Positions 1,647 through 60,931 of a stretch of 64,000 nucleotides of DNA are shown here, one piece after another. The translations under genes and the position numbers were made by a program. The DNA comes from a bacterium (lineage in GTDB: Bacteria; Patescibacteriota; Minisyncoccia; Phycocordibacterales; UBA9973), in assembly GCA_021824345.1 (NCBI GenBank), contig JAKAKW010000011.1, positions 9,074-73,073 on the forward strand, in the 5' to 3' direction. Every line of letters starts with the position of its first letter. Position 1 is the first letter of the stretch. The notes beneath the pieces are model-generated. The model saw nothing but the letters and a program-made list of their open reading frames with translations, did not search any database and was not told the origin of the DNA.

Positions 1647-1771
1647 AACCGTTTTTTATAAATATGGGGTTTTCCACACGCAAATGGCGTATTTTTAATG
1701 CTTATAAAGGTATAATAAAGACTATTAATGGAAAAGAAAGACAAACAACCTGTCTAAATCAAACTATATTT

Positions 1772-4700: not shown

Positions 4701-7399
4701 CAGGCAGGACTTTCTTCCTTTACAACAATACCAAATCACTTGTTCCGACTTCTGAATCTCCTACCGGCTCTGGATTGCGAATTACTGCGACTAATAGTGC
4801 TCCTTCCGCCCCCGATCTAATCGCTGCAACGGTTTCCCCCACGGCGGCTAATACCGGGGTCTCCACCACCTTCTCCGCCACTATCACCAACCAAGGCACG
4901 GCCGCGACCGGCACCAGCTTCTACAACTTCTTCCAGAAAGCCACCGGTTCCGGAGGAACAGGGACGGTAACTGATCTCACCGCAACCCAAATGTCTGCCC
5001 TGGCGGCGGGAGGGACCGGCACGGCATCCGTCTCCACTTCCTTCCCCCCCGCAGGCACCTACTCCATGCGCGCCTGCGCGGACAAGAGTTCTTCTTCCAA
5101 TACCGGCACCATCACCGAATCAAATGAAAACAACAACTGCGGACCCTGGACGGATATTACGGTGACGACGCCGACAACGGTAGCTCCCGACCTCGTCGCC
5201 GGAGCGGTTGCCCCGACCACAGCCATCGCGGGTGACATCCAGCCTCTTTCTTCCGTGATCTCCAACCAAGGCAGTCTCTCCACTAATTCAAGTTTCTCCG
5301 TCAAGTTCAGCGTCTCCGCTTCTCCCAGCGGTACCGGGGCTTCCACTATCAACACAACCACCATGGCGGCCTTAAACAGCGGAACCAGCGCCACCGCCAC
5401 TGTCTCATATACCTTCCCTTCGGCCGGCACCTACTATGTCCAGGCCTGCGCTGATTCAACTAACGTAATCACCGAATCAAATGAGAACAACAATTGCGGG
5501 CCGTTGACGACTATTGCTGTATCGGTGCCCCTCCCCGTCTGTTCCGCTCCCTCCGTCAGCACCGGTACCTCCGCCTCCAACATTACTTCCAGTTCCGCCA
5601 CCGGTACCGGATATATCACTTCGGACGGCGGGTGCGCGGTAATCGTGAGCGGAGGCGTATGGAGCGTGTCTCATATCCCGACTACGGCGGATCCCGCTAC
5701 TTTAAGTCATACCACCGACGGCTGGGCAAGCGGGGGACCGTACAACATCAATATGACCAGCTTGTCTCCAAGCACTCCGTATTATTATCGCGCCTATGCC
5801 ACCAACTCGGCCGGCAAGACGGGATACGGGTCTGAAACACCCTTCACTACTTTGTCCATAATTCCGCCGACCTGTTCCGCTCCCTCCGTCAGCACCACTT
5901 CTCCGGCCGCGAGTATTACCCAATCATCGGCGGTCGGCGGAGGAACCATCTCTTCGGACGGCGGGTGTGCCGTCTCTGTGAGCGGAGTGGTATGGGGAAC
6001 TTCCAACAATCCGACATTCAACCCGAATTCCGGCCCGCTCACCGGTTCTACGGGCCAGACGACCGACGGCTGGGCCTCGGGCGGACCCTGGACCGACAAT
6101 ATGACCGGTCTTTCTCCGAGCACCCCATACTACTATCGCGCCTACGCGGAGAATAGCGCCGGTATCGCCTATGGCAACAATGTGTCTTTCACTACCTTGT
6201 CCGCCGCTTGTTCCGTTCCTTCCGTTACCACCGGTTATCCTCTGAGCAATATCGGCTACAATTCCGCTACTGGATCCGGAGCCGTAACCTGGTTTGCCGG
6301 CGACTGCCCGGCGACTGTGAGCGGGGTGGTATGGAGTACCGCGAGCGATCCGACATACAATCCCAATGCGGGCGCGTTTTCCGGTTCTTCCGGCCAAACC
6401 ACGGACGGAACGACGGCTCTTGGATCTTCTTGGTATGACACCATGACCGGTTTGTCTCCCGTCGCCAATTACCATTATCGCGCCTACGCGGTGAACAGCG
6501 CCGGAGTCGGATATGGCAACGATGTGGCTTTTTCCACCACCGTGGCGCCGCCGAATGCCATGACCGGGACTCTCTCCCCGAGCGCGAATTCCTGCGTCAT
6601 CAGCCAAAACGGCAACTCTTGTTATATAAACCTTTCCTGGAACACGACCAATCCGGCGGCGACGTCGGCTGTCACCTCATCGTATCCGAGCGCCAACACT
6701 GTTTTATTCAGCGGCAATTCCGGGACGAATGAGCTGGTTTGGATTCCATACAACTCCAGAGACTTGTATCTGTACAATAACGGCACTCTTTTGGACAGCA
6801 AGAACATAACATCTTCTTGCGCTCCCGGCACGACCTGGAACAACAGCGCTTGTATTCCCTCAGGCAGTCCGGTTTCCGTTTCCATTACCGCGGATTCTAC
6901 CCAGATAGCCTTGGGCGGTTCAACCACCTTGCGCTGGACATCCGCGGGCGCTTCTTCCTGTTCCGTCACTTCCACCCCTCCGGGATTTTCTTCCAATCTC
7001 ACCGCCGGAAGCGCCACTATCCAGCCTTCCGCTACTACCACCTATACGGCGCATTGCGGCGATAACCTTGGAAATTCCGCGAGCGATTCGGTCACTGTGC
7101 GGGTTTCTCTCTCCGCTCCATCGGTTACTCTGACCGCGAATCCGGCCGCTGTCGCGCAAGGGAGCCCCTCCACTCTTTCCTGGACTTCCGCCAACGCCAG
7201 TTACTGTTACGGGTCCAACTTCAATGTTCCCGCAAGCGGCCCCAGCACTTCCGGCTCCGTATCGGTGAGCCCGGCCGCCACCACAACCTATACCATCATT
7301 TGCGTGGCGCCGGACGGCACCCAAGTGACCGGTTCGGCTACCGTTACCGTTTTGCCTCCGGGTAATGGAGGAAAAGCGCCTGTATATAAGGAAAAGTAA
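1772..7399 (+). CDS. Giant (about 1875 aa) secreted/cell-surface protein with a glycine-rich region, three CARDB-like domains and several FN3-like tandem domains (putative adhesin)
   Basis: The ORF opens at 1664, but the first plausible start is the ATG at 1772 (MRKKIWIILLGVLAVAIGSFLLYG signal/TM). Residues about 190-360 are Gly-rich (GAGGGQGGGEGG...GGGGGGGAD...GGGGGGSGYYPGG). Three domains end in the CARDB signature ESNE[GN]NNCG[NP]W (about nt 3660-4030, 4800-5160, 5180-5520). Repeated ...LSP.T.YYYRAYA.NS.G..YG FN3-like modules follow. Clean rho-independent terminator downstream. Internal minus-strand track ORFs (2084..2614, 5924..6607, 6920..7414 etc.) are GC-rich frame artefacts. Confidence 0.8.
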   Translation: MRKKIWIILLGVLAVAIGSFLLYGKIFAALPPGPLISITTSVPANVDQGSTVYIGYTVDPRGYTTTCQWNNLGGSQSITSIGPSLVYTDNKMPLYGFSSSNSTASITCQNAQGTNTRTMAFSVWNKVSFNVISGVQQYVVPSGVSTIGIAVKGAGGGQGGGEGGSNSYPGANGGKGGVTVQFVNVTAGSAINIVAGGKGHGGGYNSGGGGGGASAAYYPSDGSSFKIIAGGGGGGGADAWDGNKIYGGVGGMGGTTTGGGGGGGAGNGAGTTLVDNNSYAQGGIAGGGGGGSGYYPGGTSSATGGYGGVAIGIFSAGQNATSSSGCGLYGKGGNGGSLLDAAGGVCNRASPTAGGDGLYSVTGSAITTNLSNAFSYGSASSGGSGGLQVGNDGSDGAVYIFTPSPTPPPPAPIIELSAQNVTMNTNSTAYSKITALTTNVSRLDCSVIALPSFLSSPSADCAQVAIKSGSTATSPNSPAQVSILAKGYDLNGNAITSSSSCLGTAVWNGQLGGCLATFDVTVVSTPSCTTTSQASNLTSTSATAGGNISDTGGVPIINHGVCYSTSVGSIQSNCPSDTSSVSTGSFAESLSNLSPGTSYYYQAFAQNSVGTTYCTNMGSFTTPQSTSYLPDLTPDPNYPGVTFPTPVVAGSSTTFSQRITNIGSASSGPFYTLVRFDNDANHATYNTSLSKEIFYPNNLVPTGIATISASQTLPSAGTWYVQACADISNESTMTGTISESNEGNNCGNWTQITVTSAPAVPTCTSPVVTNITDTSATVGGTITSDGGATITSRGVAVKSSTGSYIYTDLGGTTGPVTRDIINLTPGATYYFQAWANNSVGRGYCPETSFTALRNTTINGVCAPVHYNCAAGTSSSNALSFSGLNSVYSWGCLGSNGGVPASPSCSETLSMSGTLTSDAPSCVIQSGQSSCNVTLTWGTTNPQGVSSVTSPTDSTGASVSTRVGTGDSGSQLVSIPYPGRTFFLYNNTKSLVPTSESPTGSGLRITATNSAPSAPDLIAATVSPTAANTGVSTTFSATITNQGTAATGTSFYNFFQKATGSGGTGTVTDLTATQMSALAAGGTGTASVSTSFPPAGTYSMRACADKSSSSNTGTITESNENNNCGPWTDITVTTPTTVAPDLVAGAVAPTTAIAGDIQPLSSVISNQGSLSTNSSFSVKFSVSASPSGTGASTINTTTMAALNSGTSATATVSYTFPSAGTYYVQACADSTNVITESNENNNCGPLTTIAVSVPLPVCSAPSVSTGTSASNITSSSATGTGYITSDGGCAVIVSGGVWSVSHIPTTADPATLSHTTDGWASGGPYNINMTSLSPSTPYYYRAYATNSAGKTGYGSETPFTTLSIIPPTCSAPSVSTTSPAASITQSSAVGGGTISSDGGCAVSVSGVVWGTSNNPTFNPNSGPLTGSTGQTTDGWASGGPWTDNMTGLSPSTPYYYRAYAENSAGIAYGNNVSFTTLSAACSVPSVTTGYPLSNIGYNSATGSGAVTWFAGDCPATVSGVVWSTASDPTYNPNAGAFSGSSGQTTDGTTALGSSWYDTMTGLSPVANYHYRAYAVNSAGVGYGNDVAFSTTVAPPNAMTGTLSPSANSCVISQNGNSCYINLSWNTTNPAATSAVTSSYPSANTVLFSGNSGTNELVWIPYNSRDLYLYNNGTLLDSKNITSSCAPGTTWNNSACIPSGSPVSVSITADSTQIALGGSTTLRWTSAGASSCSVTSTPPGFSSNLTAGSATIQPSATTTYTAHCGDNLGNSASDSVTVRVSLSAPSVTLTANPAAVAQGSPSTLSWTSANASYCYGSNFNVPASGPSTSGSVSVSPAATTTYTIICVAPDGTQVTGSATVTVLPPGNGGKAPVYKEK
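5527..6545 (+). repeat. Three tandem ~340-bp repeats encoding FN3-like domains inside the giant surface protein
   Basis: Protein-level repeats CSAPSVST..SDGGCAV.VSGVVW......DGWASGGP....MT.LSPSTPYYYRAYA.NSAG..YG appear three times and are visibly similar at DNA level (cctccgtcagcacc...). Confidence 0.6.
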
Positions 7400-22398: not shown

Positions 22399-25300
22399 AT
22401 GGCTTCCGGTGAAGAATCTAAAAAATCCGAATCTGCTCGGCGCGAAGAGCGGATTTTGGAGTTCTGGAAGGAGAATAAAATTTTTGAAAAAACTCTGGGA
22501 AAGCCGTCCCCCAAGGGGGAATTCGTTTTCTACGAAGGTCCGCCTACGGCCAATGGCAAACCTCACATAGGGCACTTTGAGGCGCGTTCTTTCAAGGATG
22601 CCGTTCCCAGGTACAAGACCATGCGCGGATACCATGTGCGTCGGAAAGGCGGATGGGACACCCACGGCCTGCCTGTGGAGCTTGCGGTGGAGAAAAAACT
22701 CGGGCTTAGTTCCAAAAAGGGGATAGAGGAATACGGAATTGCCAAGTTCAACGAGCAATGCAAGGAAAGCGTATGGGAATATGTGAACCTATGGGAAAAG
22801 TTCACCGAGCGCGTGGGATACTGGGTGGATCAGAAGGATGCCTACGTCACTTACCATAACGATTACATTGAATCTCTTTGGAATATCGTAAAAAAAATAG
22901 ATGAACAAGAACTGCTTTACAAGGATTACAAAGTGGTTCCGTGGTGTCCGCGCTGCGGGACGGCCCTTTCCTCGCACGAATTGGCGCAGGGATATGAGGA
23001 TGTGAAGGATCTGTCGGTGTATGTGAAATTCCGCGTGAAATCTTCGCCTGACGCTTTTGCGAAGGTCCTCGGTTCCCCTCGCACAAAGCTTGCTCCTTCG
23101 GAGCTGGAAGCTCGGCCAGACCATTCGCAAAAGCATTCAGTCGAGGATTTCACATATATTCTGGCATGGACCACTACCCCCTGGACTTTGCCGGGCAACG
23201 TTGCTTTAGCGGTAGGAAAAGATATTGATTACACCGCTTTGCGCGTAAAAGGGGTTTCCGAATTGTATATTCTCGCAAGCGATAGGGTAAAGAGTGTCTT
23301 TGAAGGGCAGGAAATTGAAATTGTGCATGACAACATAAAAGGATCAGATCTTGTCGGCCTGGAATACGAACCCTTGTATCCGTATTTCGCGAACACTCTT
23401 CCTGAGAGCGAAAAGTCCAAACTTCCAAAAGCATACAAGGTTTACGAAGCGGATTTTGTGACAACCGTTGACGGCACGGGCGTGGTGCATACCGCCGTGA
23501 TGTACGGACAAGACGACTTCGTGCTGGGCACCGCTATCGGTTTGCCCAAGCACCATCTCGTGGGTCTGGACGGGAAATTCCTGGCCGGCACTGATTTTCT
23601 TGAAGGAAGATTCGTGCGAGACGAAGATGTGGCAGTGGACATTATCAAAGACCTTGCGCACCGGAACCTTTTGCTAAAGAAAGAAAAGTACGAACACTCA
23701 TATCCTTTCTGCTGGCGCTGCCATACCGCGCTCATATATTACGCGCGGGACTCGTGGTACATAAAAGTTTCAGATCCGCGGATTAAGGAAAAGATGATTT
23801 CTGAGAATGAGAAGATAAACTGGGAGCCGGCGCACATTCGGGACGGGCGTTTCGGAGAATGGCTGCGCGATATCAAGGACTGGGCGATTTCCCGCGAGCG
23901 GTACTGGGGAACTCCGCTTCCGGTGTGGACATGCGAGAAATGCAACCAGAGGATTACCATCGGAAGCATTGAGGAACTGAAAAAGCATACGAAGAAATCC
24001 GGCAATCGGTACTTCTTTATGCGGCATGGAGAAGCAGAGAGCAATGTTAAGGGTATGGTGGCTTGCAGAGTGGAGGATAACGATAATTTAATCGAGGCCG
24101 GGAAACAACAAGTATTGTCTTCGGCAAAACAACTAAAAGAAAAGAATATTGATCTTATTTTCTCCTCGGATATTTTGAGGACGAAAGAGACAGCTGAAAT
24201 TGTTAAAAAAGAAATTAGTACTGAAAAAGAAATAATTTTTGACAAGCGCCTGCGCGAGTGGAACGTAGGAAAATTTGACGGAAAAACATGGCACGAATAT
24301 AAAAAATTTGCGCGCCAACACGATGATTGGTACAGTTTTATCCCTGAGGGAGGCGAATCATTCAAAGATATAAAGATTAGAGTTTTTGATTTCATTTACG
24401 AATTGGAGAATAAATACCAAGGGAAAAATATCTTGATCGTCACTCACCAGGCTCCGATTGTAGTTATTCTTAAGGGTTTAGATAAACTTAATGATGAAGA
24501 TACAAAGGCAGGTGATAGCGATGTGAACTTAAGATTCAAGGGAGGAGAGTTTAAAGAGATAGATTTTACCTTACTTCCCCACAACAAAAACTACGAGCTG
24601 GATTTGCACCGGCCATACATAGACGAGGTTCCGCTGGTCTGCGATTGCGGAGGAAAACTTTCTCGTACACCGGAGGTTATGGACGTCTGGTTTGATTCCG
24701 GTTCCATGCCGTTTGCCCAGGATCATTATCCTTTTGAGAACAAAGACTGGATTGACGATCACGGATATCCGGCTGATTTCATATCGGAGGCCATAGATCA
24801 GACTCGCGGATGGTTCTATACCCTGCACGCCGTGGGAGCGCTTGTGGGGAAGGGCAGGGCATACAAAAATGTAATCTGTCTCGGACACCTGATGGATGCC
24901 GAGGGAAAGAAAATGTCAAAACATATCGGCAACGTAGTGGACCCCTGGGAGATGATAGAGAAATACGGGGCGGATACTTTGCGATTATGGATGTACTCCA
25001 TAAACCAGCCGGGCGAGTCCAAGAATTTTGATGAAAAAACGGTGGTGCTTCTCCACCGGCAAATGTTCGGTCTGCTTTACAATGTGCTTTCTTTCTACGA
25101 GCTTTACCGCGACAAAGAGCTTGAGACGATGGGAGGCAAGGCCTCCCACCGGCCTGCCTCGGAAAATATTCTGGATAAGTGGATAATTACGCGATTAAAC
25201 GAGCTGGAGATTCTGTGCACGGAAAATCTTGAGAAATATAAATTATTGGAACCCGTGCGGGCCATGCGCGATTTCATCGACGATCTGTCCACTTGGTATT

Positions 25301-26016
25301 TGCGCCGATCCAGGGAGCGCATTAAGGACGGGGACAAGGATGCCAAGCGCACTTTGTACTTTGTGTTGAAAAATCTTGCCAAGCTTCTGGCCCCGTTCGC
25401 TCCTTTTGCCACCGAGGATATATGGCAAAAGCTTAAAAGCGATGAGGACCCTGCAAGCGTTCATTTGTCCGAGTGGCCGTACAAGGACCAATCCCTTTTG
25501 CAAAAGCTTTTCGGAAAGAAAGAAAAAGTGGATTACTCAGTGCTGGAAAATATGCGCCGAGCCAGGCAGATTGTGACAATGGGCTTGGAAGCTCGGCAGA
25601 AAGCGGGCATAAAGGTGCGCCAACCGCTCGGACTTTTGAGGATAAAGGATCGGAATCTTTCATCGGAGTATGAAGAGCTCATCAAGGACGAGCTCAATGT
25701 TAAAGAAATTGCCAAAGATGCCGGCCTAGAAGGAGAAGTGTTGCTTAATACTGAAATTACTCCTGAACTTAAAGAAGAAGGCGACTATCGCGAACTGGTT
25801 CGCGCTATTCAGGATATGCGCAAAGAGGCGGGGCTCTTACCGAGCGACATGGTAACGCTTCTTTTGGATACTGATGAATCTGGCGAAAAGCTGGCCAAAA
25901 AATTTGAAGAAGATCTGAAGAAAACTGTTAGCGCCGAAAAAATTGAATTCACGGAAAGCGACGGTCCGGAAATCAAAATCGGCAATTCAGCGTTTAAGAT
26001 AAAAATTCAAAAATAG
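22399..26016 (+). CDS. ileS: Isoleucine--tRNA ligase (type 2) carrying three insertions
   Basis: HIGH (PTANGKPHIGH), CP1 editing (WTTTPWTLPGN), KMSKS (KMSKHIGN). 1205 aa is about 150-200 aa longer than typical type-2 IleS. Insertions at 23062-23128, 24001-24570 and 25130-25148 are annotated separately. Confidence 0.9.
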   Translation: MASGEESKKSESARREERILEFWKENKIFEKTLGKPSPKGEFVFYEGPPTANGKPHIGHFEARSFKDAVPRYKTMRGYHVRRKGGWDTHGLPVELAVEKKLGLSSKKGIEEYGIAKFNEQCKESVWEYVNLWEKFTERVGYWVDQKDAYVTYHNDYIESLWNIVKKIDEQELLYKDYKVVPWCPRCGTALSSHELAQGYEDVKDLSVYVKFRVKSSPDAFAKVLGSPRTKLAPSELEARPDHSQKHSVEDFTYILAWTTTPWTLPGNVALAVGKDIDYTALRVKGVSELYILASDRVKSVFEGQEIEIVHDNIKGSDLVGLEYEPLYPYFANTLPESEKSKLPKAYKVYEADFVTTVDGTGVVHTAVMYGQDDFVLGTAIGLPKHHLVGLDGKFLAGTDFLEGRFVRDEDVAVDIIKDLAHRNLLLKKEKYEHSYPFCWRCHTALIYYARDSWYIKVSDPRIKEKMISENEKINWEPAHIRDGRFGEWLRDIKDWAISRERYWGTPLPVWTCEKCNQRITIGSIEELKKHTKKSGNRYFFMRHGEAESNVKGMVACRVEDNDNLIEAGKQQVLSSAKQLKEKNIDLIFSSDILRTKETAEIVKKEISTEKEIIFDKRLREWNVGKFDGKTWHEYKKFARQHDDWYSFIPEGGESFKDIKIRVFDFIYELENKYQGKNILIVTHQAPIVVILKGLDKLNDEDTKAGDSDVNLRFKGGEFKEIDFTLLPHNKNYELDLHRPYIDEVPLVCDCGGKLSRTPEVMDVWFDSGSMPFAQDHYPFENKDWIDDHGYPADFISEAIDQTRGWFYTLHAVGALVGKGRAYKNVICLGHLMDAEGKKMSKHIGNVVDPWEMIEKYGADTLRLWMYSINQPGESKNFDEKTVVLLHRQMFGLLYNVLSFYELYRDKELETMGGKASHRPASENILDKWIITRLNELEILCTENLEKYKLLEPVRAMRDFIDDLSTWYLRRSRERIKDGDKDAKRTLYFVLKNLAKLLAPFAPFATEDIWQKLKSDEDPASVHLSEWPYKDQSLLQKLFGKKEKVDYSVLENMRRARQIVTMGLEARQKAGIKVRQPLGLLRIKDRNLSSEYEELIKDELNVKEIAKDAGLEGEVLLNTEITPELKEEGDYRELVRAIQDMRKEAGLLPSDMVTLLLDTDESGEKLAKKFEEDLKKTVSAEKIEFTESDGPEIKIGNSAFKIKIQK
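23062..23128 (+). repeat. About 66-nt repeat element inserted in-frame in ileS (encodes roughly AKVLGSPRTKLAPSELEARPDHSQ); second copy at 36154-36215
   Basis: aggtcctcggttcccctcgc...agctggaagctcggccagaccat has a 23-nt identical core and about 75-80% identity over 70 nt with the tatD-rpsF spacer copy. From a remembered T. thermophilus IleS alignment, this IleS has about 28 extra residues between VKFRVK and WTTTPWTLPGN. Confidence 0.65.
24001..24570 (+). other. Inserted histidine-phosphatase (phosphoglycerate-mutase-like) domain within ileS
   Basis: FFMRHGEAESN (RHG catalytic motif), IFSSDILRTKETAEIV, DKRLREWNVG, IPEGGES, IVTHQAPI match the PhoE/GpmB-type histidine phosphatase fold. The insert lies between the conserved PVWTCEKC...ELKKH and DLHRPYIDEV...VMDVWFDSG IleS segments and is AT-richer than the flanking ileS sequence. 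Confidence 0.7.
25130..25148. repeat. Family-B palindrome copy (tgggaggcaaggcctccca) in-frame inside ileS, encoding GGKASH
   Basis: Exact match to the intergenic family-B element (31422-31440); translates as MGGKASH within a variable IleS linker. Confidence 0.6.
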
Positions 26017-38213: not shown

Positions 38214-40415
38214 TTAACCGCCCGCCTGTTCCGAGAACTTTTTTCGGATATCCTTCAAAATCTGGCCCGCGATTTTCGGATTTTCTTTCAAAAATGTCCG
38301 AGTGGAATCGTAGCCCCGTCCGAGCTTCACTTCCTCTTCGCCATCCGGCTTGCCCGCCTGCCCGGTTGGCTTGTATGAATACGAACTGCCGGACTTTTCC
38401 AAGATCTTAAACTTTTCTCCGAGGGCGATGAGTTCGCCTTCTTTGGAGATGCCTTCGTTATAAATGATGTCGAATTCCGTCTGCTTGAACGGCGCGGCTA
38501 CTTTGTTTTTTACCACTTTCACTCGTGTTCGCGATCCCACCACTTCTTCTCCTTTCTTTATTTGGGCGATGCGCCGGATGTCCATTCGAACACTTGTGTA
38601 AAACTTAAGAGCCTTGCCTCCGGGCGTTGTTTCCGGCGAGTTGCTGACCAGGCAGCCATCCGCAAAATAATTGTGGTTATCAGCGACGCTTATATCAAAT
38701 CTTTGCCGGCTTATCCTCTGGCCATCATGGTACGGCGTACGGGTTCTGATTTCTTTTATTATCATCGGGCGCAATATCTGGCTTTGCTTTGATTGTTGAG
38801 GATCCGTCTGATGATAGCGCCCGCGGTATTTTTCAGGAAGCTTGTATTCCATGGACTTAGGAACGAAAGGGGATATCAGTTCAAAGAATTTATCCGACTC
38901 TGCGGCACTAAAACCCAGCACTTGATATTCTCCGCATTTCCTCCATTTGGGCGCAATATCATAGCGGGCGAATATCCGGTTGATTCTGTCAACGCTCTCC
39001 GGCTGATTTCCGAAGGCGTTGGCGTACAGCCCGGCTCTCGGCCGCCGCGCGTACCATTTTCCTTTCCATTCTGAAAGTCCGGTCTGCATTGTTCCGTCTC
39101 CGCAGTACCATAAAGCTATCATGCGAGGAGTAATTTGCTCCACCAAAAACTCCGGCACGATCTTTTTTTGTTGCGGATAAAACAGTCCGTGTAGGTCTCC
39201 GATGCGCAGAAGATGTTTGGTTTCCACAATGGCATTTCCCCTAGAATTTTCCATTACGACATTGCTGGCGATATCGCCCAATTCCTCTGCGAGCCATGAC
39301 ACGTATTGGGATTGTTCTGCTCCATGTTCCTCCCTGAAATATGCGGTTTGTTCGTTAAATTTCTTAATGTTTCCATCTCCCAGCAAAGAGCCGATGATAA
39401 TCTCCTCTTGTTCCGGGGAGAGGTCTATATTATTTATATTCACTGATATCTCATCTCCGGCTTTCAGTTCCTTGGCCTTTTTCCAGCCAGCCGGCGTATA
39501 TATTTTGTGGTCGGGAGTGCAGGAAAATCCTCTTCGTCCGTTTCCCGTATGGTTTTGAACAAAAAACTGCAAGAATGAATCCGTTTCTCCGTTTATGTGC
39601 CAGTCAGTTATGAACTTTGCTTCTACGCATTTCTTTTCAAAATTATAAGAAAGCACCTTCACTTTTTTAGTTTGATTGACAATTTTCCCGATTTTTTCTT
39701 TCGTTCCGTCGGCCAGCAGCACTTTCGTATCGTAGGAAAAACATCCGAACATCACCCCGATCTGCATTCTGATTTGGTTTATGAAAATCACTACGGTCTT
39801 GCTTCGCGCCACGATTGCCGTGAGCTTGCGCAGAGCTTGGGACATAAGCCGGGCCTGCTTGCCCACATGATATGCTCCCATATCTCCCTCGATTTCATCT
39901 TTTGGAGTAAGGGCTGCCACCGAGTCCACCACCACCACGTCAATCTTGCCGGTGCGCACAAGCGATTCCACTATTTCCAGCGCCTGTTCTCCGGTATCCG
40001 GCTGGGAAATCAGGAGTTCGTTTATGTTGACGCCGAGACGTTTGGAATATTCCGGATCCATGGCATGCTCCGCGTCAATGTACGCGCATATTCCGCCTTT
40101 CTTTTGCGCCTCCGCCACTATATGCAGGGACAGGGTAGTCTTCCCGCTGGACTCCGGGCCGAAAATTTCGATAATCCTTCCGCGGGGAATGCCTCCGACC
40201 CCCAAGGCCATATCCAGGCCGATTGAGCCCGTGGGTATTACGTTCACATCCACCTTCGGGGTATCCCCGAATTTCATAATAGTGCCTTCGCCAAACTTGG
40301 TCTGCAGGGCTTTCAGGGTGTCTTCCAATCCTGAAGCGTTTCCGCCTTTTCCGGCGGAACCCTTTTTTTCTTCACTTATTTCCTTCTGGGGGTCGGTTTT
40401 TGTTTTTTTAGGCAT
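38214..40415 (-). CDS. recA: Recombinase RecA interrupted by a 368-aa intein
   Basis: N-extein has Walker [10 protein letters not shown] and ...[11 protein letters not shown]-extein resumes [23 protein letters not shown].... Between them is a Cys1...VSN intein with LAGLIDADG motifs. Confidence 0.9.
38640..39743 (-). mobile_element. RecA intein with LAGLIDADG homing-endonuclease domain
   Basis: Starts [14 protein letters not shown] (block A, Cys1), ends [11 protein letters not shown]|S (terminal Asn, +1 Ser). Internal [11 protein letters not shown] and [18 protein letters not shown] motifs. 1104 nt = 368 codons, in frame, at the MFG|SPETT site. Confidence 0.85.
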
Positions 40416-52072: not shown

Positions 52073-53007
52073 TCATGGAAAAGAACTCCAAAATATACGT
52101 TGCCGGACATACCGGACTTGTCGGTTCGGCGATTGTACGAGAACTTAAAAAACAGGGATATGAGAATCTAATATTTAGGACTAGCAAAGAGCTAGACTTG
52201 CGCTCGCAATCAGACACCTTAGATTTTTTTAAGAAAGAACAGCCCGAGTATGTCTTTCTTGCCGCCGCCAAAGTTGGCGGTATAGGGGCAAATGATAAAT
52301 ATTCGGCGGATTTCATTAGGGACAACCTAGAGATAGAAGACAACGTAATTGACGGCAGCCACCAAGGGGGAGCAAAGAAACTGCTTTTTTTGGGCAGTTC
52401 ATGTATATATCCAAAGCTTGCTCCCCAGCCTTTAAAAGAAGAATACTTGCTCACCGGTCCGCTTGAAGAGACAAATAAAGCGTATGCGGTAGCAAAAATA
52501 GCCGGAATCACCATGTGCCAGATGTATGATAAACAGTATGGCACGAATTTTATTAGCGCCATGCCTACTAATTTGTATGGTCCCGGGGACAATTTTGATC
52601 TTGAAACTTCGCATGTTCTGCCCGCGATGATTCGGAAGTTTCATGAAGCAAAAGAAAGCGGGGCTAAAGAAGTGACACTGTGGGGCACGGGCAATCCTAA
52701 ACGAGAATTTCTGCATGTGGATGACTTGGCAAGCGCATGCGTTTTCCTTATGGAAAAGTACGATAGTCCGGAGATAATAAACGTGGGAACAGGGGAAGAT
52801 GTTTCAATAATGGAGCTGGCAGACAAAGTAAAAAAAATAATAGGGTGTTCCGGTAAAATTGTATGGGATTCAGACAAGCCCGACGGAACGCCGCGTAAGC
52901 TGCTGGATACTTCAAAAATCAATGCTCTCGGCTGGAGACCGTTAATTTCCATGGACGAAGGTATAAAATCTACATACGAGTGGTTTTTGGATAAATATGG
53001 AAAATAA
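52069..53007 (+). CDS. fcl: GDP-L-fucose synthase (GDP-4-keto-6-deoxymannose 3,5-epimerase/4-reductase)
   Basis: [15 protein letters not shown].., [14 protein letters not shown]. 4-nt overlap with gmd. Confidence 0.9.
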
Positions 53008-55015
53008 ATATGACATTGTAATAGTCGGCGCCGGAATTTCCGGCGCTACTCTGGCAGAGCGGTACGCTTCTTTAGGAAAAAAAGTGCTGGTGATAGAATC
53101 TCGGGACCATATCGGAGGAAACTGTTACGATTTCATTAATGAAGACGGAATCTTGGTGGCAAAATACGGGCCGCACTATTTTCATACGAATTATGAAGAC
53201 GTGTGGAGATATGTGAACCGTTTTTCTGAATGGGTCCCTTTTGAGGCTCGAGCCGTCAGTCATATTGACGGGAAAAAGGTTTCTTTACCCATAAACATAA
53301 AGACAATAAATCAGGTCTTTGGCTTGGAGATTAAAGAAAAAGAAGAAATGGAGAAGTGGGTAAAAGAAAATACTGAACCAAAAAGGCACCCCAGAAATTC
53401 TGAAGATGCGGCAATAGGCCGGGTAGGCAAAATCCTATATGAAAAGGTATTCAAGGAGTACACTCGAAAACAATGGGATAAGGATCCCAAGGAGCTTGAC
53501 CCTGAAGTGACAAACAGGATACCGATTCGCCTAAACGATGACGACAGGTATTTTACCGATGTCCATCAAGCCATACCAAGGGAAGGATACGCCAAGCTTT
53601 TTAAAAATATGTTAAGCAATGAAAATATAGAAGTTCGCCTCAATACCAAGTGGGAAGATGAAAAAGACAGGATTACTTACCGGGAGAAACTTTTTTTTAC
53701 GGGGAGGATTGATTCATATTTTAAAAAGAAATTCGGCCTGTTGGAATATCGCTCGCTTAAGTTTGAGTTTGAGACTTTTAACCGCGAATATTTTCAGGAA
53801 TACGTGCAGGAGAATTACCCGTCACTTAAAGTTCCCTTTACCCGAATTGTTGAATACAAGCATATGACCGGTCAGAAACATCCAAAAACGACCGTTTCCC
53901 GCGAATATCCTACTTGGGAGGGGGAGCCGTATTATCCGGTTCCTTCGACAAAAAACAGGAAGATATACGTAAAATATCAGCATGAGGCGAAAAGGTTGGA
54001 GAAGAAAAACATTTATTTTGTCGGCCGACTGGCCAATTACAAATACTTTAATATGGATCAGGCGTTCAAGAACGCCCTGGATTTGTTCTATAGGCTGGAA
54101 GGAAAGAAAGAACGCGGATCGGGGATGACGGTAAGACTCGCCGGGGGAATGGGAAACCAGATGTTTCAATACGCACTTGGCCGGAAGCTTTCAATAAAAA
54201 ACAACGTACCCTTGTATCTTGATTTGACGTTTTTAAATCACAGAGTCAAACTACCGGAGTTTTTGCGCCCTCATTTCGTTTTTCATGATTTGAAACTTGA
54301 TGTGTTTAATATCAAGGCTGACATCGCGAATCCCGCCCAAATTGGTTTTTGGAACCGTCCCTTTTTATCTGGAAAGATCATGATATTGATTGACGCGATT
54401 TTGCGCAAGCTCGCGCTCTTCCCAGGATGGGAAAAGTCATTTTCTTTTAACAAGAAAATCCTTGATTTAGGTCCTGGCACGTACCTGGAGGGATATTGGC
54501 AAAGCGAAAAATATTTCAAGGATATAAGCGAAACGCTTCGGAAAGATTTTTCCTTGAAAGCGCCCTTGTCCGGCAAGGCAGCGGAACTTTATAAAGAAAT
54601 AAGAAACTGCGCGTCCTTATGTATATTTGTGCGCAGGAAAGACATGGCAGATAAATCTTTTCACGGCACCGTGCCCATTGAGTATTACCGTGCCGGCATA
54701 GAATACATAAAGAAGCGTCAACCTATTGAAAAAATATACGTGTTTTCAGATGACAATGAATGGTGCCGGCAGAATCTGAAGTTTGAATATCCCACCTTGA
54801 TCGCCGAAAAGGAATGTTCCGGCAAGAAATGGGAAGGGCATCTTATTTTAATGAGTGCGGGCCGGAATTTCATAATCGCCAACAGTACTTTTTCCTGGTG
54901 GTCGGCATGGCTTTCAGATAACCCGAACAAGATAGTCGTTGCCCCTAAACAATGGTTTGGGAACAATAGGCTGGACGATTCCGATTTAATACCCGAAAGC
55001 TGGGTAAGATTATAA
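52997..55015 (+). CDS. Fusion ORF: UDP-galactopyranose mutase (N-terminal ~375 aa) plus GT11 alpha-1,2-fucosyltransferase (C-terminal ~295 aa)
   Basis: N-terminal [18 protein letters not shown]...[15 protein letters not shown] (Glf FAD-binding) through ...[12 protein letters not shown]. The C-terminal part begins at the internal Met of [18 protein letters not shown] (GT11 motif I) and contains VRRKD, YVFSDD and [12 protein letters not shown] motifs. Continuous frame with no stop. 11-nt overlap with fcl. Confidence 0.75.
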
Positions 55016-56860: not shown

Positions 56861-59019
56861 ATCTTTCCTGGGAAAAGATAAACAAGGGACTTTTACTTCT
56901 TGGACTTGTTGCCCTGCTATATAGGGAAGGGAACTTTGCCGGCACGTTTATACCAAAGCCCTTTGAAATAATATTTGTGATCTTGTGTGTTTCCACAGCT
57001 CTTTTCATGTTAAAGGGCTCAAAAATGAAGGATTTTTTCGCATCAATACCGAGAAAAATATTAATTGCCGTATGTGTAATGTTGGGGTCAGTATTTCTGG
57101 GATGGATTTCGGCTTCATTGTCCGGCATGAAGCCCAATTTCAATATGATTTTGGAGCTAGGAACTTTTTTAATCGGAATTGGCATTTTTCTTTTGATTCT
57201 TTTTTATGCTCAGGGGAACAAAGCGTATGCGCGATATTGCTTATATGCCATGCTGGTTCCGGCGATATATGCTTTTTTTATTTTCCTGTATCCCGGCACA
57301 TATCTTGGCATAAATTTAAAAATACATTTCCTGGGTTTTACGATAAATCCGAATACCATTTCAAAGATCTTATTGATCCCGGCAATGTTTTTTGTTTCTT
57401 ATTCATTATTCGAGCATCGGAACAAATGGATAAAGGCTCTGTATATTTTCTTGTCCGCTTCCATGGTTTCTCTAATATTCTGGACGGGGTCAAGAGGGTC
57501 TTTGGTAAGCCTTATAATAGGAATGGGTTTCATTTTAGTCGTATACATATTTCATGAATTCACCTGGAAAAAAATCTTCTTCGGTTCCGGAGTAATCTTA
57601 GCTATACTTATTTTGGGTCAGGGGATGTTGCCCATAGATCGACAGGAGGCATTCGTGCACAGAGTGGTCCTCACTTTTATTCATCAGCCGAATATAGTTT
57701 CCACCTTGCGAGAATATACTACTGGGGTAGTTATATATCAGAATAAAGAGGAAGAATTGGAAGGAACGATTGACATAAAACTCGTTGAGCCTAGGCTCAT
57801 TGCGTGGCCGTTCTATTTGAAATATGTGCTTCTTCATCCCCTTGGCATAGGTCCGGATACGCACAAAGATTTCGGACTTGTAGATAAAAAAGGCAATCCA
57901 ATAAATTCAGGTCCTCATAACACCTATCTTGAAATATGGCTGTGGGGAGGCATACTAGGCATCCTAAGTTTCATATACTTATTGTATTGCGCTTTTAAAA
58001 ACTTAACGGAAAGGATCAAATCTTCCTTCAGCCTGACAAATATTGCGCTACTGGCGATTCTTTTTGCTTTATCCGTATCTATTTTCTTTGATGACAGTCT
58101 TTCATTTTATTGGTTTTTCATAATCTTGGCGTTTGCCTTAATTGAAAAGGAGACTATTGCGGTCAGCATGCATATGGGAAAAGAAGAGCTAGATATTTTT
58201 GCAAAGCTGAGTTGGAACTTCAAAACGGTTTTTGATGTTGGTTCAAGAGACGATATTGATTATTTTAAGATAAAAAACGACTGCGAGTATCATTTGTTCG
58301 AACCTAATACGGAGGCTATTGCCTCAATAAAACGGAAAATTTCGAATTTAGGCGAGCACAATATAATTCTCAATGAATTCGGACTATCAGACGCCGACAA
58401 AGACAACTGCGTTTATTACAAGAACGTTCAGTCATTTATCCCGCATTGGAGTTTAGCCTCTTTTGACACTGGCGAACGTTTTTCTCTGCGTAAAATGGAT
58501 GATTATGTGGAAAATCACGGCATATCCTTCATTGATTTTCTGAAAATAGACGTTGAAGGAATGGATTATCAAGTAATACTCGGGGGCATAAATACTATTA
58601 AGCGGAACAACAAAGTATCTTTTATCCAGCTGGAATGTTCCGGTGGCAGCAGGCAATATATCGAGCTTCTGGATAATTTTGATTTTTACTTAATTATGGA
58701 TCCTAGTCTGCTGAAAGTGATCAATACTTTAAACAGAACAGGCATCGACTTCAACAAGCAATTGATCAAGATGGATGAGGATGTAATAATTTTTTTGGAT
58801 AAGACTATGGCTGAAACTGGCGCCGCGGCTTGTATTTTAGGAGTGAATAAAAACATTGATTTTTCTTTAATAATTCAAGAAAGAAAACTGGCATACAGCA
58901 TAGTTTCCGTGAACAAATCGTACAGTGGAATGGCTCTGGATTATTTTAAGATCTTATACGGTATCAAAAGGCGCTTGCGGAAAATAAGGAAGACGGTCAA
59001 AAATTTCCTCTTTACTTGA
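56857..59019 (+). CDS. Fusion ORF: Wzy_C (O-antigen ligase/polymerase-like) membrane domain plus C-terminal FkbM-family methyltransferase domain
   Basis: About 430 aa with 10 or more TM helices and the Wzy_C region (GSRGSLVSL...SGPHNTYLEIWLWGGILG). From about residue 440, FkbM-type MTase motifs (FDVGSRDDIDYF...FEPN......KIDVEGMDYQVILG). No stop between the two parts. Confidence 0.7.
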   Translation: MNLSWEKINKGLLLLGLVALLYREGNFAGTFIPKPFEIIFVILCVSTALFMLKGSKMKDFFASIPRKILIAVCVMLGSVFLGWISASLSGMKPNFNMILELGTFLIGIGIFLLILFYAQGNKAYARYCLYAMLVPAIYAFFIFLYPGTYLGINLKIHFLGFTINPNTISKILLIPAMFFVSYSLFEHRNKWIKALYIFLSASMVSLIFWTGSRGSLVSLIIGMGFILVVYIFHEFTWKKIFFGSGVILAILILGQGMLPIDRQEAFVHRVVLTFIHQPNIVSTLREYTTGVVIYQNKEEELEGTIDIKLVEPRLIAWPFYLKYVLLHPLGIGPDTHKDFGLVDKKGNPINSGPHNTYLEIWLWGGILGILSFIYLLYCAFKNLTERIKSSFSLTNIALLAILFALSVSIFFDDSLSFYWFFIILAFALIEKETIAVSMHMGKEELDIFAKLSWNFKTVFDVGSRDDIDYFKIKNDCEYHLFEPNTEAIASIKRKISNLGEHNIILNEFGLSDADKDNCVYYKNVQSFIPHWSLASFDTGERFSLRKMDDYVENHGISFIDFLKIDVEGMDYQVILGGINTIKRNNKVSFIQLECSGGSRQYIELLDNFDFYLIMDPSLLKVINTLNRTGIDFNKQLIKMDEDVIIFLDKTMAETGAAACILGVNKNIDFSLIIQERKLAYSIVSVNKSYSGMALDYFKILYGIKRRLRKIRKTVKNFLFT

Positions 59020-60931
59020 AAAGCTTCCGGTATTTATCCTTGTTTTTCAAAACGTAGTCCGGCAAATCTGATTCGTCGGTCCAGTATTTGAATTTTCGGC
59101 CTCGATAATCCACGTTTTTATTCACTCTATCTTCTAAAGTTTCCAGCCAGTCTGCATAGGCTGGGTGCCGCCATTCCGCCATTTTTCTTTTTGCTCCTTC
59201 CACTCCTCCCATAAATCCGAAATGCCATCCGCCATCGTTAACCTCGGCATATCTAGTCTTTTTTCTGGTACGCAGATCATTCAGGCAATTTTCTTTTATA
59301 GTTTTGTATTGAACGGCAATTGTCCCCGTCCAACCGTTTACTTCGTTACAACGATTGTTTAAATAGTAATAGTATGCAAGCTGCTTTGGGCGGATTATCT
59401 CGCTTTTTGAAAAATCGGTAAGCCCTTTTAATTTTATTGGGTTCCATATTTCATCCAAGTCGGACACAAATACCACGTCCGTGTCATTCAGATTAAGCTT
59501 CGCAAGTGCTTTTTTCGCGCTTTCTTTCTGATAGAATTCCCGTACCCAGTAATGCTCTCCGGCGCCTACGTTGCTGTTATTCTTTGCCATTTCAAACAAG
59601 GAAGTGTCTTTAGGAAAATCATTCACCACGTAATAGGTTATCTTGTCTTTCCATTTTGCGAACCGCTCCTTGTGTTTCTCGTATTGCAGTTCATGGGGCA
59701 TTCCGGAAAAAGTTTCCGTGCTCTCCACGATCACGAATTGGTCCACGTAATCGTTCAATATATTAAGCCTGATTTCCAGGAGATCAAGTTCATTGAGCAG
59801 ATAAAACAGGTCGTATACCTTGATCCTTTTCTTATATTCGTCCAGTTCTATTTTTGATACCCAGGCCTTTTGCCTGACTTTTTCTTTTTTCAGTTCAAGG
59901 GAAGTTCTTACGAAGTTTTTTGCGCTCTGCATCTTGTAAATCACCGCCCTGGCGGCCCTTCTGGCGCTTTTCGGAAGCAATTGTTTGGCTTTTGCCTTCA
60001 TGCCTTTTGGGGCCGGCATGAAAACGGGAGCCTGATTTTGATAATAATCTTTATGTCTTTCCATATACGCCTTCAGTTCCTTTAAGCATGTATCATAATC
60101 GTTGAGATTCCCTTCCCGGTCCAGGTAATTCCACCCTTTCGTAATGTTGTATCCCAGGCTCCAGTATCCGTCCGAAACGTTGTGCCTGCCCCAATATTTC
60201 GGTGCAATGCAGAATTTTAGACTCTCGCTAAGCCAGGCGGGAAACCAAGCGAAGCTGGAATTGGACATGATGAGATAATGGGCGTTTTTAACCACGACAT
60301 AATCCTTTGCAATACTGAAATGAAATACCCCGAAATCCGGGAAGAATTTTTTGGCTGTTGAAACATCTTCGGTAATTACAATGAATCGGAAATTCGGATT
60401 GATTTTTCGCATATGCCTTACGGCATCTTCCCAATATTCTTTTCTCAAAAAAAATTCCGGATGCCTGACATACTCTCCGCCCCGGAAATTTATGACGCAG
60501 GTGTTGTCATCGGCGTAGTCATAGCATTCATATTCTTCCTTCACCTGGAGCCATTTTTTTATTTCATCCTTTCGGTGAAAAATATATTGCTCGTCTTGCA
60601 TTAATCCGTCTATTTTTGTGCCATCTTTAATGTTTACCAGATTTTTGTCATATGTTCTGATGTCTGCTCCGGAAAATGGGTGGATGATTTTTCTTTCAGT
60701 GTAATAATACTGCATGCCTTCGGGCAAGGTTTTGGGCGGTCCGCCCTCCGGGCCTTTTCCGCCTGTCACCTTACATCCGAAATCAAGATTCATAAAATTT
60801 CCCGCCTTAAATTTTTCAGGGGATTTGATACCAAAATCATATCCATTATCTAAGGAAAAAACTCTCGTTGCCACATAGCAGGCAAGCTGGTTGCCCAGTC
60901 CTTGGCCGTTGTATAACTCTGTAATTATCAT
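59012..60931 (-). CDS. Two-domain glycosyltransferase: N-terminal GT11-like domain plus C-terminal GT17-like (MGAT3-type) domain
   Basis: N-terminal GQGLGNQLACYV, FRGGEYV, MSNSSFAWFPAWL mirror GT11 motifs I/II/IV. C-terminal FYLLNELDLLEIRLNILNDYVDQFVIVESTETFSG..., TDVVFVSDLDEIW, GGWHFGFMGG, PDYVLKNKDKY parallel Glyco_transf_17 blocks (NHEFDLLDVRF..VVDAFVVCESNFT, DDVFIIDDADEIP, GWHCSWCF, PKYLLKNYDRF, recalled from memory). Confidence 0.7.
   Translation of the reverse strand: MIITELYNGQGLGNQLACYVATRVFSLDNGYDFGIKSPEKFKAGNFMNLDFGCKVTGGKGPEGGPPKTLPEGMQYYYTERKIIHPFSGADIRTYDKNLVNIKDGTKIDGLMQDEQYIFHRKDEIKKWLQVKEEYECYDYADDNTCVINFRGGEYVRHPEFFLRKEYWEDAVRHMRKINPNFRFIVITEDVSTAKKFFPDFGVFHFSIAKDYVVVKNAHYLIMSNSSFAWFPAWLSESLKFCIAPKYWGRHNVSDGYWSLGYNITKGWNYLDREGNLNDYDTCLKELKAYMERHKDYYQNQAPVFMPAPKGMKAKAKQLLPKSARRAARAVIYKMQSAKNFVRTSLELKKEKVRQKAWVSKIELDEYKKRIKVYDLFYLLNELDLLEIRLNILNDYVDQFVIVESTETFSGMPHELQYEKHKERFAKWKDKITYYVVNDFPKDTSLFEMAKNNSNVGAGEHYWVREFYQKESAKKALAKLNLNDTDVVFVSDLDEIWNPIKLKGLTDFSKSEIIRPKQLAYYYYLNNRCNEVNGWTGTIAVQYKTIKENCLNDLRTRKKTRYAEVNDGGWHFGFMGGVEGAKRKMAEWRHPAYADWLETLEDRVNKNVDYRGRKFKYWTDESDLPDYVLKNKDKYRKLFK

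Follow-up and report, generated by a model that had tools for sequence, protein, structure and literature searches.

A putatively splicing intein with an I-SceI-like LAGLIDADG homing endonuclease in the recA gene of a Patescibacteria genome

The recA gene on a 64,000-nucleotide stretch of contig JAKAKW010000011.1 (assembly GCA_021824345.1), hereafter the window, is interrupted in frame by an insert with the anatomy of an intein. We consider it very likely that this is a class-1 splicing intein combined with an I-SceI-like homing endonuclease with two LAGLIDADG motifs, that it occupies the RecA-b site of a Paceibacteria/Nomurabacteria-like recA, and that it splices and homes with co-conversion of the flanking sequence. 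Judged from sequence, the intein is probably able to splice, and it is probably still mobile or was mobile until recently. The mechanism, the architecture, and the insertion site of such elements are all established already; the host phylum, Patescibacteria, appears to be new for RecA inteins.

Results and discussion

An intact intein within recA

The recA precursor is a single open reading frame (ORF) of 733 amino acids (aa) on the reverse strand with zero internal stops (Table 1). The preliminary description of this DNA had placed a 368-aa insert at 38640-39743 of this ORF, and these coordinates are borne out to the base; the stops or frameshifts that it proposed to look for are present neither in this allele nor in 13 related full-length alleles. 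The insert begins with CFSYDTK at Cys1 (precursor residue 225) and reads ...CLVSN↓SPETT at its C-terminus, with the terminal Asn at residue 592 and Ser+1 at residue 593 (arrows mark insertion points and extein-intein junctions). Matches to the Pfam RecA model (1e-128) and to NCBIfam TIGR02012 (8e-144) both come in two stretches, the former broken around residues 225-592. Removal of the insert leaves a 365-aa RecA whose alignment to Escherichia coli RecA runs through the junction free of gaps, via ...IRMxIGVMFG-(N/S)-PETT..., and alignment with intein-free relatives likewise shows an in-frame insertion whose exact removal restores the conserved host protein. At the DNA level, the spliced junction is ATCAGAATGCAGATCGGGGTGATGTTCGGA↓TCGCCGGAAACAACGCCCGGAGGCAAGGCT, and the native version with Asn is …TTTGGC↓AATCCAGAAACAACT…. 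Twelve independently assembled contigs (for example, DAICBP010000002.1 of GCA_027428375.1) encode a 733-aa protein identical to this one, and an assembly, sequencing, or frameshift artefact can therefore be dismissed. The guanine-plus-cytosine content of the intein (0.457) is near the window average (0.467), with the recA exteins at 0.50-0.53, so that composition is not informative as a sign of recent transfer. A scan of the 64-kb window found no other inteins.

Table 1 Features of the intein-containing recA gene, in window coordinates
Feature	Position	Strand	Evidence
recA precursor ORF, 733 aa + stop (N-extein, intein, C-extein)	38214..40415	-	Pfam/NCBIfam RecA matches; identical protein on 12 contigs
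N-extein, RecA residues 1-224, with the N-terminal part of loop L2 at its end	39744..40415	-	Gap-free alignment to E. coli RecA over the junction
Intein, 368 aa, precursor residues 225-592	38640..39743	-	HMMs, AF2 model, Foldseek
Hint N-lobe, intein residues 1-107; block A Cys1 at 39741-39743, block B T76-P-D-H79 at 39507-39518	39423..39743	-	TIGR01445; PI-MtuI match by sequence and fold
LAGLIDADG homing-endonuclease domain, I-SceI-like, intein residues 108-305	38829..39422	-	PF03161, phmmer, Foldseek
LAGLIDADG motif 1, LLGDGNI (Asp123), precursor residues 344-350	39366..39386	-	
LAGLIDADG motif 2, WYCGDGT (Asp216), precursor residues 436-442	39090..39110	-	
Hint C-lobe, intein residues 306-368; block F D350/H357, block G ...CLVSN, penultimate Ser367	38640..38828	-	TIGR01443
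Terminal Asn368 of the intein	38640..38642	-	
+1 Ser codon TCG, transesterification nucleophile; replaces Asn (AAY) of intein-free relatives	38637..38639	-	
C-extein, RecA residues 593-733 + stop: rest of loop L2, core, C-terminal domain	38214..38639	-	RecA_C PF21096

The full-length intein with two LAGLIDADG motifs that had been proposed is backed by profile hidden Markov models (HMMs), structure prediction, and comparison with known proteins. The comparison with intein HMMs suggested as a check puts TIGR01445 (intein_Nterm, residues 225-307) at 41.4 bits, above its cutoff of 24.5, and TIGR01443 (intein_Cterm, residues 573-593) at 24.9 bits, above its cutoff of 15.6; LAGLIDADG_2 (PF03161) scores 76 to 78 bits over residues 338-510 against a cutoff of 25. 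In phmmer searches of PDB sequences, the N-lobe matches the Mycobacterium tuberculosis RecA mini-intein, and the middle of the insert matches the homing endonucleases I-WcaI (6x1j) and I-SceI, with E values of 1e-6 to 1e-3 for the endonuclease domain. An AlphaFold2 (AF2) model of the intein, built from a 13-sequence alignment, has a predicted local distance difference test score (pLDDT) of 91.9 and a predicted TM score (pTM) of 0.84. When the whole model is searched with Foldseek, it matches the endonuclease-containing inteins PhoVMA, PI-PfuI, and PI-SceI (E 1e-11 to 1e-9). At probability 1.00, the Hint part matches three mini-inteins (Mtu RecA, Ssp DnaB, and Npu DnaB) with a root-mean-square deviation (rmsd) of 1.6 to 2.3 A, the alignment to the Mtu RecA mini-intein covering 102 columns at 1.7 A (TMt 0.63), and the central domain aligns with I-SceI and I-WcaI over about 210 columns (TMt 0.71-0.72).

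I-SceI and I-WcaI are monomeric LAGLIDADG endonucleases encoded in mitochondrial group I introns. The endonuclease domain in the window resembles them in sequence, in fold, and in the equivalent placement of the catalytic Asp on two LAGLIDADG helices; unlike them, it is housed within a Hint domain and made as part of a protein rather than from an intron ORF, and its target would be recA.

Insertion site and the wider intein family

The insert splits an IGVMFG-x-PETT motif directly after the Gly that precedes x, and profile, structure, and comparison all agree with its earlier placement after IGVMFG and before SPETT. This segment is the DNA-binding loop L2 of RecA (E. coli residues 195-209), and since the insert disrupts the loop, the precursor should be inactive until spliced. 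Two metagenomic RecA fragments (P0016 and P0017) carry an intein of this type together with a PI-MtuI-like intein 46 residues downstream at VVKNK↓C, which identifies the site in the window as the 'RecA-b' site of Actinobacteria and not the 'RecA-a' site of M. tuberculosis; in the window protein the corresponding stretch is uninterrupted. PI-MtuI, the M. tuberculosis intein at RecA-a, is like the window intein in its RecA host, class-1 architecture, Cys1, and Hint fold (25% identity), and differs from it in its site (KNK↓C, 46 residues downstream), its +1 Cys, its penultimate His, and its length (440 aa); sequence similarity between the two was detected in the Hint N-lobe only. The M. leprae RecA intein (UniProt P35901, intein 206-570) we take to be at the RecA-b site. 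The RecA inteins of M. leprae and M. tuberculosis are described as differing in size, sequence, and location (review, PMC5874633).

The combination of a Hint domain with a PF03161 endonuclease defines a large family, with 4,276 representatives at E<=1e-3 and 140 at E<=1e-30. Host contexts were counted among 138 full-length representatives. RecA interrupted at exactly ...G(V/I)MFG↓SPETT accounts for 53 of these, and a further 16 are divergent RecA-like proteins with the intein at or adjoining the equivalent loop position; 39 are ligases with the intein in the KxDG motif, and 30 have other hosts. The flanks of the window intein are identical to those of P0005-P0009 and of the 53 RecA-hosted representatives. 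More than 1,172 clusters at 90% identity make up the group of actinobacterial RecAs with an intein at this site, and proteins under the NCBI name 'intein-containing recombinase RecA' occur in Mycobacterium, Mycolicibacterium, Nocardioides, Rhodococcus, and Streptosporangiaceae. RecA inteins, called classically mycobacterial in the preliminary description, are thus not confined to mycobacteria, and a 2016 survey lists them in Actinobacteria, Cyanobacteria, and Proteobacteria (PMC4760082). Full-text literature searches found no report of RecA inteins in the candidate phyla radiation (CPR).

The window intein is 34% to 40% identical to actinobacterial RecA inteins at 100% coverage, with E values down to 1e-61. 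It belongs to a deep and isolated clade, with a single other cluster at 50% identity (P0138, 73%) among 1.84 billion representatives. In a crude neighbor-joining tree of 139 inteins, the Paceibacteria clade groups with inteins of ligases and other hosts and not inside the RecA-hosted group, whereas actinobacterial RecA inteins are nearest when ranked by identity. The actinobacterial RecA-b inteins, presumably of the PI-MleI type, share with the window intein the IGVMFG↓SPETT site, the Hint and PF03161 domains, Cys1, and Ser+1. They are 362 to 364 aa long, compared with 368 aa in the window, have WYMDDG where the window intein has WYCGDG in motif 2, and have His at the penultimate position where the window intein has Ser. 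Further, the host in the window is a member of the Patescibacteria whose native +1 residue is Asn, so that, unlike in the actinobacterial proteins, the Ser had to arrive with the intein.

Several relatives show how varied the settings of this family are. Four actinobacterial-type RecAs from metagenomes (P0016, P0017, P0141, and P0148) contain two inteins, one at RecA-b that ends ...VMVHN↓SPETT and, 46 residues on, a PI-MtuI-like one at RecA-a (VVKNK↓C), and three others (P0158, P0182, and P0183) have, beside the RecA-b intein, another large insert close to the ATPase region at the N-terminus. The ligase-hosted inteins (39/138; e.g., P0139, P0165, and P0192) split nucleotidyl-transferase motif I of ATP-dependent ligase-like proteins (xEKxxG↓C...HN↓SN), making this motif a second major homing site of the family; one ligase-hosted member, P0014, carries PF09414 (RNA ligase). 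In the divergent RecA-like protein encoded on L130, the contig of P0010, a homologous intein interrupts this loop one residue away from the site in the window (KIGP↓C...VHN↓SFGDP); about 20 small ORFs without Pfam matches surround the gene, a setting that looks phage-like.

Catalytic residues and the penultimate serine

In an alignment of 139 members of the intein family, the window intein has the consensus catalytic residue at every position but the penultimate one (C1, T76, H79, D350, H357, N368, and both LAGLIDADG Asp). Position 1 is Cys in 138 members, Thr76 and His79 of block B are found in 135 and 139, respectively, and the terminal Asn, which precedes Ser in the window (N368↓S), is found in all 139; the two LAGLIDADG Asp residues (123 and 216) are kept in 132 to 135. 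Asp350 (F:4) and His357 (F:13) of block F are present as well. A class-2 or class-3 intein was ruled out by the presence of Cys1 in place of Ala1 and by the lack of a WCT motif, and a bacterial intein-like (BIL) or Hedgehog-type domain by the terminal Asn, the +1 Ser, and the exact restoration of the host protein.

The preliminary description had remarked on the penultimate Ser as unusual. It does stand in place of His, the residue found in 49 of the 53 RecA-hosted family members, but it is not exceptional, being shared by 21 of the 139 members (15%), phage-borne ones among them, and fixed across the whole Paceibacteria intein clade. On this distribution the penultimate Ser is a lineage trait, not a defect. 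The penultimate His is an assisting residue and not an obligatory one: inteins without it can splice, and the block F His can substitute for it (PMC5050341; PMC4031507), splicing of inteins that lack it being attributed to Chen et al. 2000 as cited in PMC4031507. In phage inteins this position is often Gly, Lys, or Ser, and the residue affects the splicing rate (Kelley et al. 2016, PMC5050341); these class-1 phage inteins share with the window intein both a non-canonical penultimate residue and a host gene for DNA metabolism.

Related inteins with 27% to 38% identity to that of the window, ending ...YFAD(G/N)xLVSN, were found on viral and metagenome contigs (L086-L091, L110, L113, and L115), where they split helicase motif II between DE and (C/S)H in ORFs of 922 to 3548 aa. 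The subgroup with a penultimate Ser seems to be concentrated in genes on viral contigs. These inteins differ from that of the window in their host genes, the window intein being chromosomal and in a cellular recA.

Distribution in Paceibacteria and the +1 residue

The closest RecA proteins (83% to 89% identity) are annotated as Candidatus Paceibacterota, Nomurabacteria, or Patescibacteria. The intein-free recA alleles that had been suggested as a point of comparison dominate among these relatives: the 120 closest RecA clusters listed are all 330 to 427 aa long and intein-free, and all 80 genome loci retrieved have a contiguous recA of about 1 kb. At least 16 related intein alleles are present in Paceibacteria metagenomes (P0001-P0004, P0138/L081, and L095-L106), all of them in recA at the same site and with 58% to 81% identity to the window intein. 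Each of the 13 full-length alleles (the 12 of L095-L106 and L081) is intact, and all 16, including the fragments P0001 and P0002, end ...LVSN↓SPE. The gene order FtsK, small ORF, recA, EF-P, S18, SSB, and S6 is kept in the intein-bearing relative L081. The extein core in the window is closer to 119 of the 120 intein-free clusters than to any intein-bearing allele, and the intein is therefore sporadic within the group, as expected of a homing element.

The residue after MFG is Asn in all 120 of the closest intein-free RecAs and in the 77 of the 80 genome loci where the motif was located (AAT or AAC), whereas it is Ser in all 16 Paceibacteria intein alleles, always with a TCN codon (TCG, TCA, TCT, or TCC). 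TCN codons are at least two substitutions away from AAY, compared with one for the AGY codons of Ser. Given this association, the Ser nucleophile appears to travel with the intein, as predicted if the flanks are co-converted during homing. Loop L2 of the mature RecA would thereby carry an Asn-to-Ser change relative to intein-free relatives. The site called conserved MFG↓SPETT in the preliminary description needs one correction: the native motif of the lineage is MFG-N-PETT, with Ser in intein-bearing alleles only. An actinobacterial donor is not supported by the +1 codon; the one actinobacterial allele fetched (P0005) uses AGT and not TCN.

Selection and mobility of the intein

Synonymous sites are saturated between the window and every related allele compared (proportion of synonymous differences, pS, 0.75-0.93), leaving L095/L096 and P0138/P0001 as usable pairs. 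Between L095 and L096, the one pair whose synonymous sites are not saturated, the ratio of nonsynonymous to synonymous substitution rates (dN/dS) is lowest for the extein core (0.029), followed by the endonuclease (0.042) and the Hint domain (0.061); between P0138 and P0001 it is 0.063 for the intein. An endonuclease that is useless to the host keeps such constraint only if it is used, suggesting that it is still in use. The mobile genetic element with a homing endonuclease that had been proposed is thus supported both by its sporadic distribution and by purifying selection on the endonuclease.

L095 (Ga0209211_10000616) and L096 (Ga0075959_104) have a dS of about 1.0 in the intein and about 2.3 in the flanking exteins. 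This difference hints at a more recent shared ancestry of the intein than of the host gene and may stem from a transfer of the intein that followed the divergence of the hosts. Between L100 and L101, the Hint domain is 86% identical and the RecA core 78%. These comparisons, few in number and without a formal reconciliation, point to ongoing or recent horizontal homing.

An intein that has kept splicing and lost mobility, with its endonuclease inactive or co-opted, could persist in recA simply because precise deletion is rare and imprecise deletion within L2 is harmful. The rare, patchy distribution would fit such an element, the homing-cycle model predicts that the endonuclease decays after fixation, and the broad correlation between intein and extein identities among intein-bearing alleles (r=0.88) fits long vertical inheritance with losses elsewhere. 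The endonuclease, however, retains both catalytic Asp residues and a dN/dS as low as that of the Hint domain, and none of the 13 full-length relatives shows its deletion or decay; intein-bearing alleles are scattered among intein-free ones, and intein dS falls below extein dS in the L095/L096 pair. We therefore regard the loss of mobility as unlikely.

A role for the intein in its host would be a different reason for its maintenance. The penultimate Ser together with Cys364 near Cys1 could slow splicing or make it respond to redox state or metals, so that the intein gates RecA activity in these tiny cells after translation and is kept by selection on the host. With an insert in the L2 loop, which is critical for function, the precursor should be inactive, and the clade-specific ...DGCLVSN motif is kept in 14 of the 16 related alleles; splicing of the M. 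leprae RecA intein is reported to be host-dependent (review, PMC5874633), and changes of the penultimate residue tune the splicing rate of phage inteins (PMC5050341). Cys364, however, while mostly conserved, is Ser in L095, with the preceding Gly replaced by Asp in P0138/L081 and P0001. Nearly all close relatives are intein-free, which disfavors a needed regulatory role, and mobility is the better explanation for the purifying selection acting on the endonuclease. A conditional-splicing switch is accordingly a quite improbable account of this intein.

Splicing, cleavage, and the proposed mechanism

Several points weigh against a splicing and homing intein. We infer splicing and DNA cleavage themselves, the anatomy, fold, catalytic residues, distribution, and selection being what was observed. 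The His (G:6) that assists Asn cyclization is replaced by Ser367. PF14890 (Intein_splicing) is the sole intein HMM under its gathering cutoff (29.8 against 35.8), and NF007072 ('intein-containing recombinase RecA', M. tuberculosis type) scores 382 bits against a whole-protein cutoff of 1024, with the intein part barely matching (18.5 bits). In E. coli, the RecA intein of M. leprae reportedly fails to splice (review, PMC5874633), and splicing of an intein of this type may depend on host or conditions. A second, intein-free recA could be located outside the 64-kb window; a scan found none inside it. The case for horizontal transfer consists of one well-behaved pair and identity rankings, most allele pairs being saturated.

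The lack of the penultimate His and the score of PF14890 would fit an insert that does not splice at all, with recA inactivated as in a pseudogene, or a chimeric assembly. Yet the ORF is intact in the window, on the 12 contigs that encode the same protein, and in the 13 full-length alleles, diverged as they are; apart from the penultimate one, every catalytic residue is conserved; and dN/dS is far below 1 in exteins and intein alike. Removal of the insert restores RecA exactly, and the synteny of FtsK, recA, EF-P, S18, SSB, and S6 is kept in the intein-bearing relative L081. A non-splicing insert is thus extremely improbable.

For the favored splicing and homing intein, the following course of events is envisaged. 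The 733-aa precursor would be translated with loop L2 disrupted, and an N-S acyl shift at Cys1, aided by Thr76 and His79 of block B, would form a thioester that is then attacked by Ser+1. Asn368 would cyclize, with His357 of block F probably standing in for the absent penultimate His, and an O-N shift would yield a 365-aa RecA collinear with E. coli RecA and a free 368-aa intein. The endonuclease would cut intein-less recA at the junction sequence, and repair would copy the intein and the adjacent Ser codon into the cut allele. Homing with such co-conversion would account for why the intein is distributed sporadically, why the change from Asn to Ser accompanies it, and why its endonuclease is under purifying selection.

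A more far-reaching scenario, which we consider doubtful, is that an actively homing intein is now circulating among Paceibacteria, possibly carried by phages, each invasion overwriting the Asn of L2 with a TCN Ser, and that the block of Ser367 and the usual Cys364 tunes or gates splicing, placing the RecA of minimal, host-dependent cells under post-translational control by a selfish element.

Other features of the window

A class-I aminoacyl-tRNA synthetase of 1205 aa (22399-26016, forward strand) matches tRNA-synt_1 in two stretches, Anticodon_1, and DUF5915. Its residues 539-699 match a histidine-phosphatase domain (His_Phos_1, PF00300, 3e-34) that appears to separate the two stretches of the catalytic domain, an unusual domain insertion. 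It is not an intein, as it gives no Hint signal. A UDP-galactopyranose mutase fused to a GT11 glycosyltransferase (52997-55015, forward strand) and a two-domain GT17/GT11 glycosyltransferase (59012-60931, reverse strand) cluster with two O-antigen-ligase-like (Wzy_C) proteins in a locus for cell-surface glycans. A 1911-aa protein with CARDB and fibronectin-III-like repeats (1664-7399, forward strand) is probably a large surface protein.

Conclusions

While it leaves the understanding of inteins unchanged, this case adds Patescibacteria (CPR) to the known hosts of RecA inteins. A very small, streamlined genome here keeps a 1.1-kb selfish element in its only visible recombinase gene. The Asn-to-Ser change in RecA loop L2 offers a clean natural case of an intein imposing a change on its extein, and the approximately 16 diverged, intact alleles with a penultimate Ser provide material for the study of splicing without the G:6 His or of new I-SceI-like specificities.

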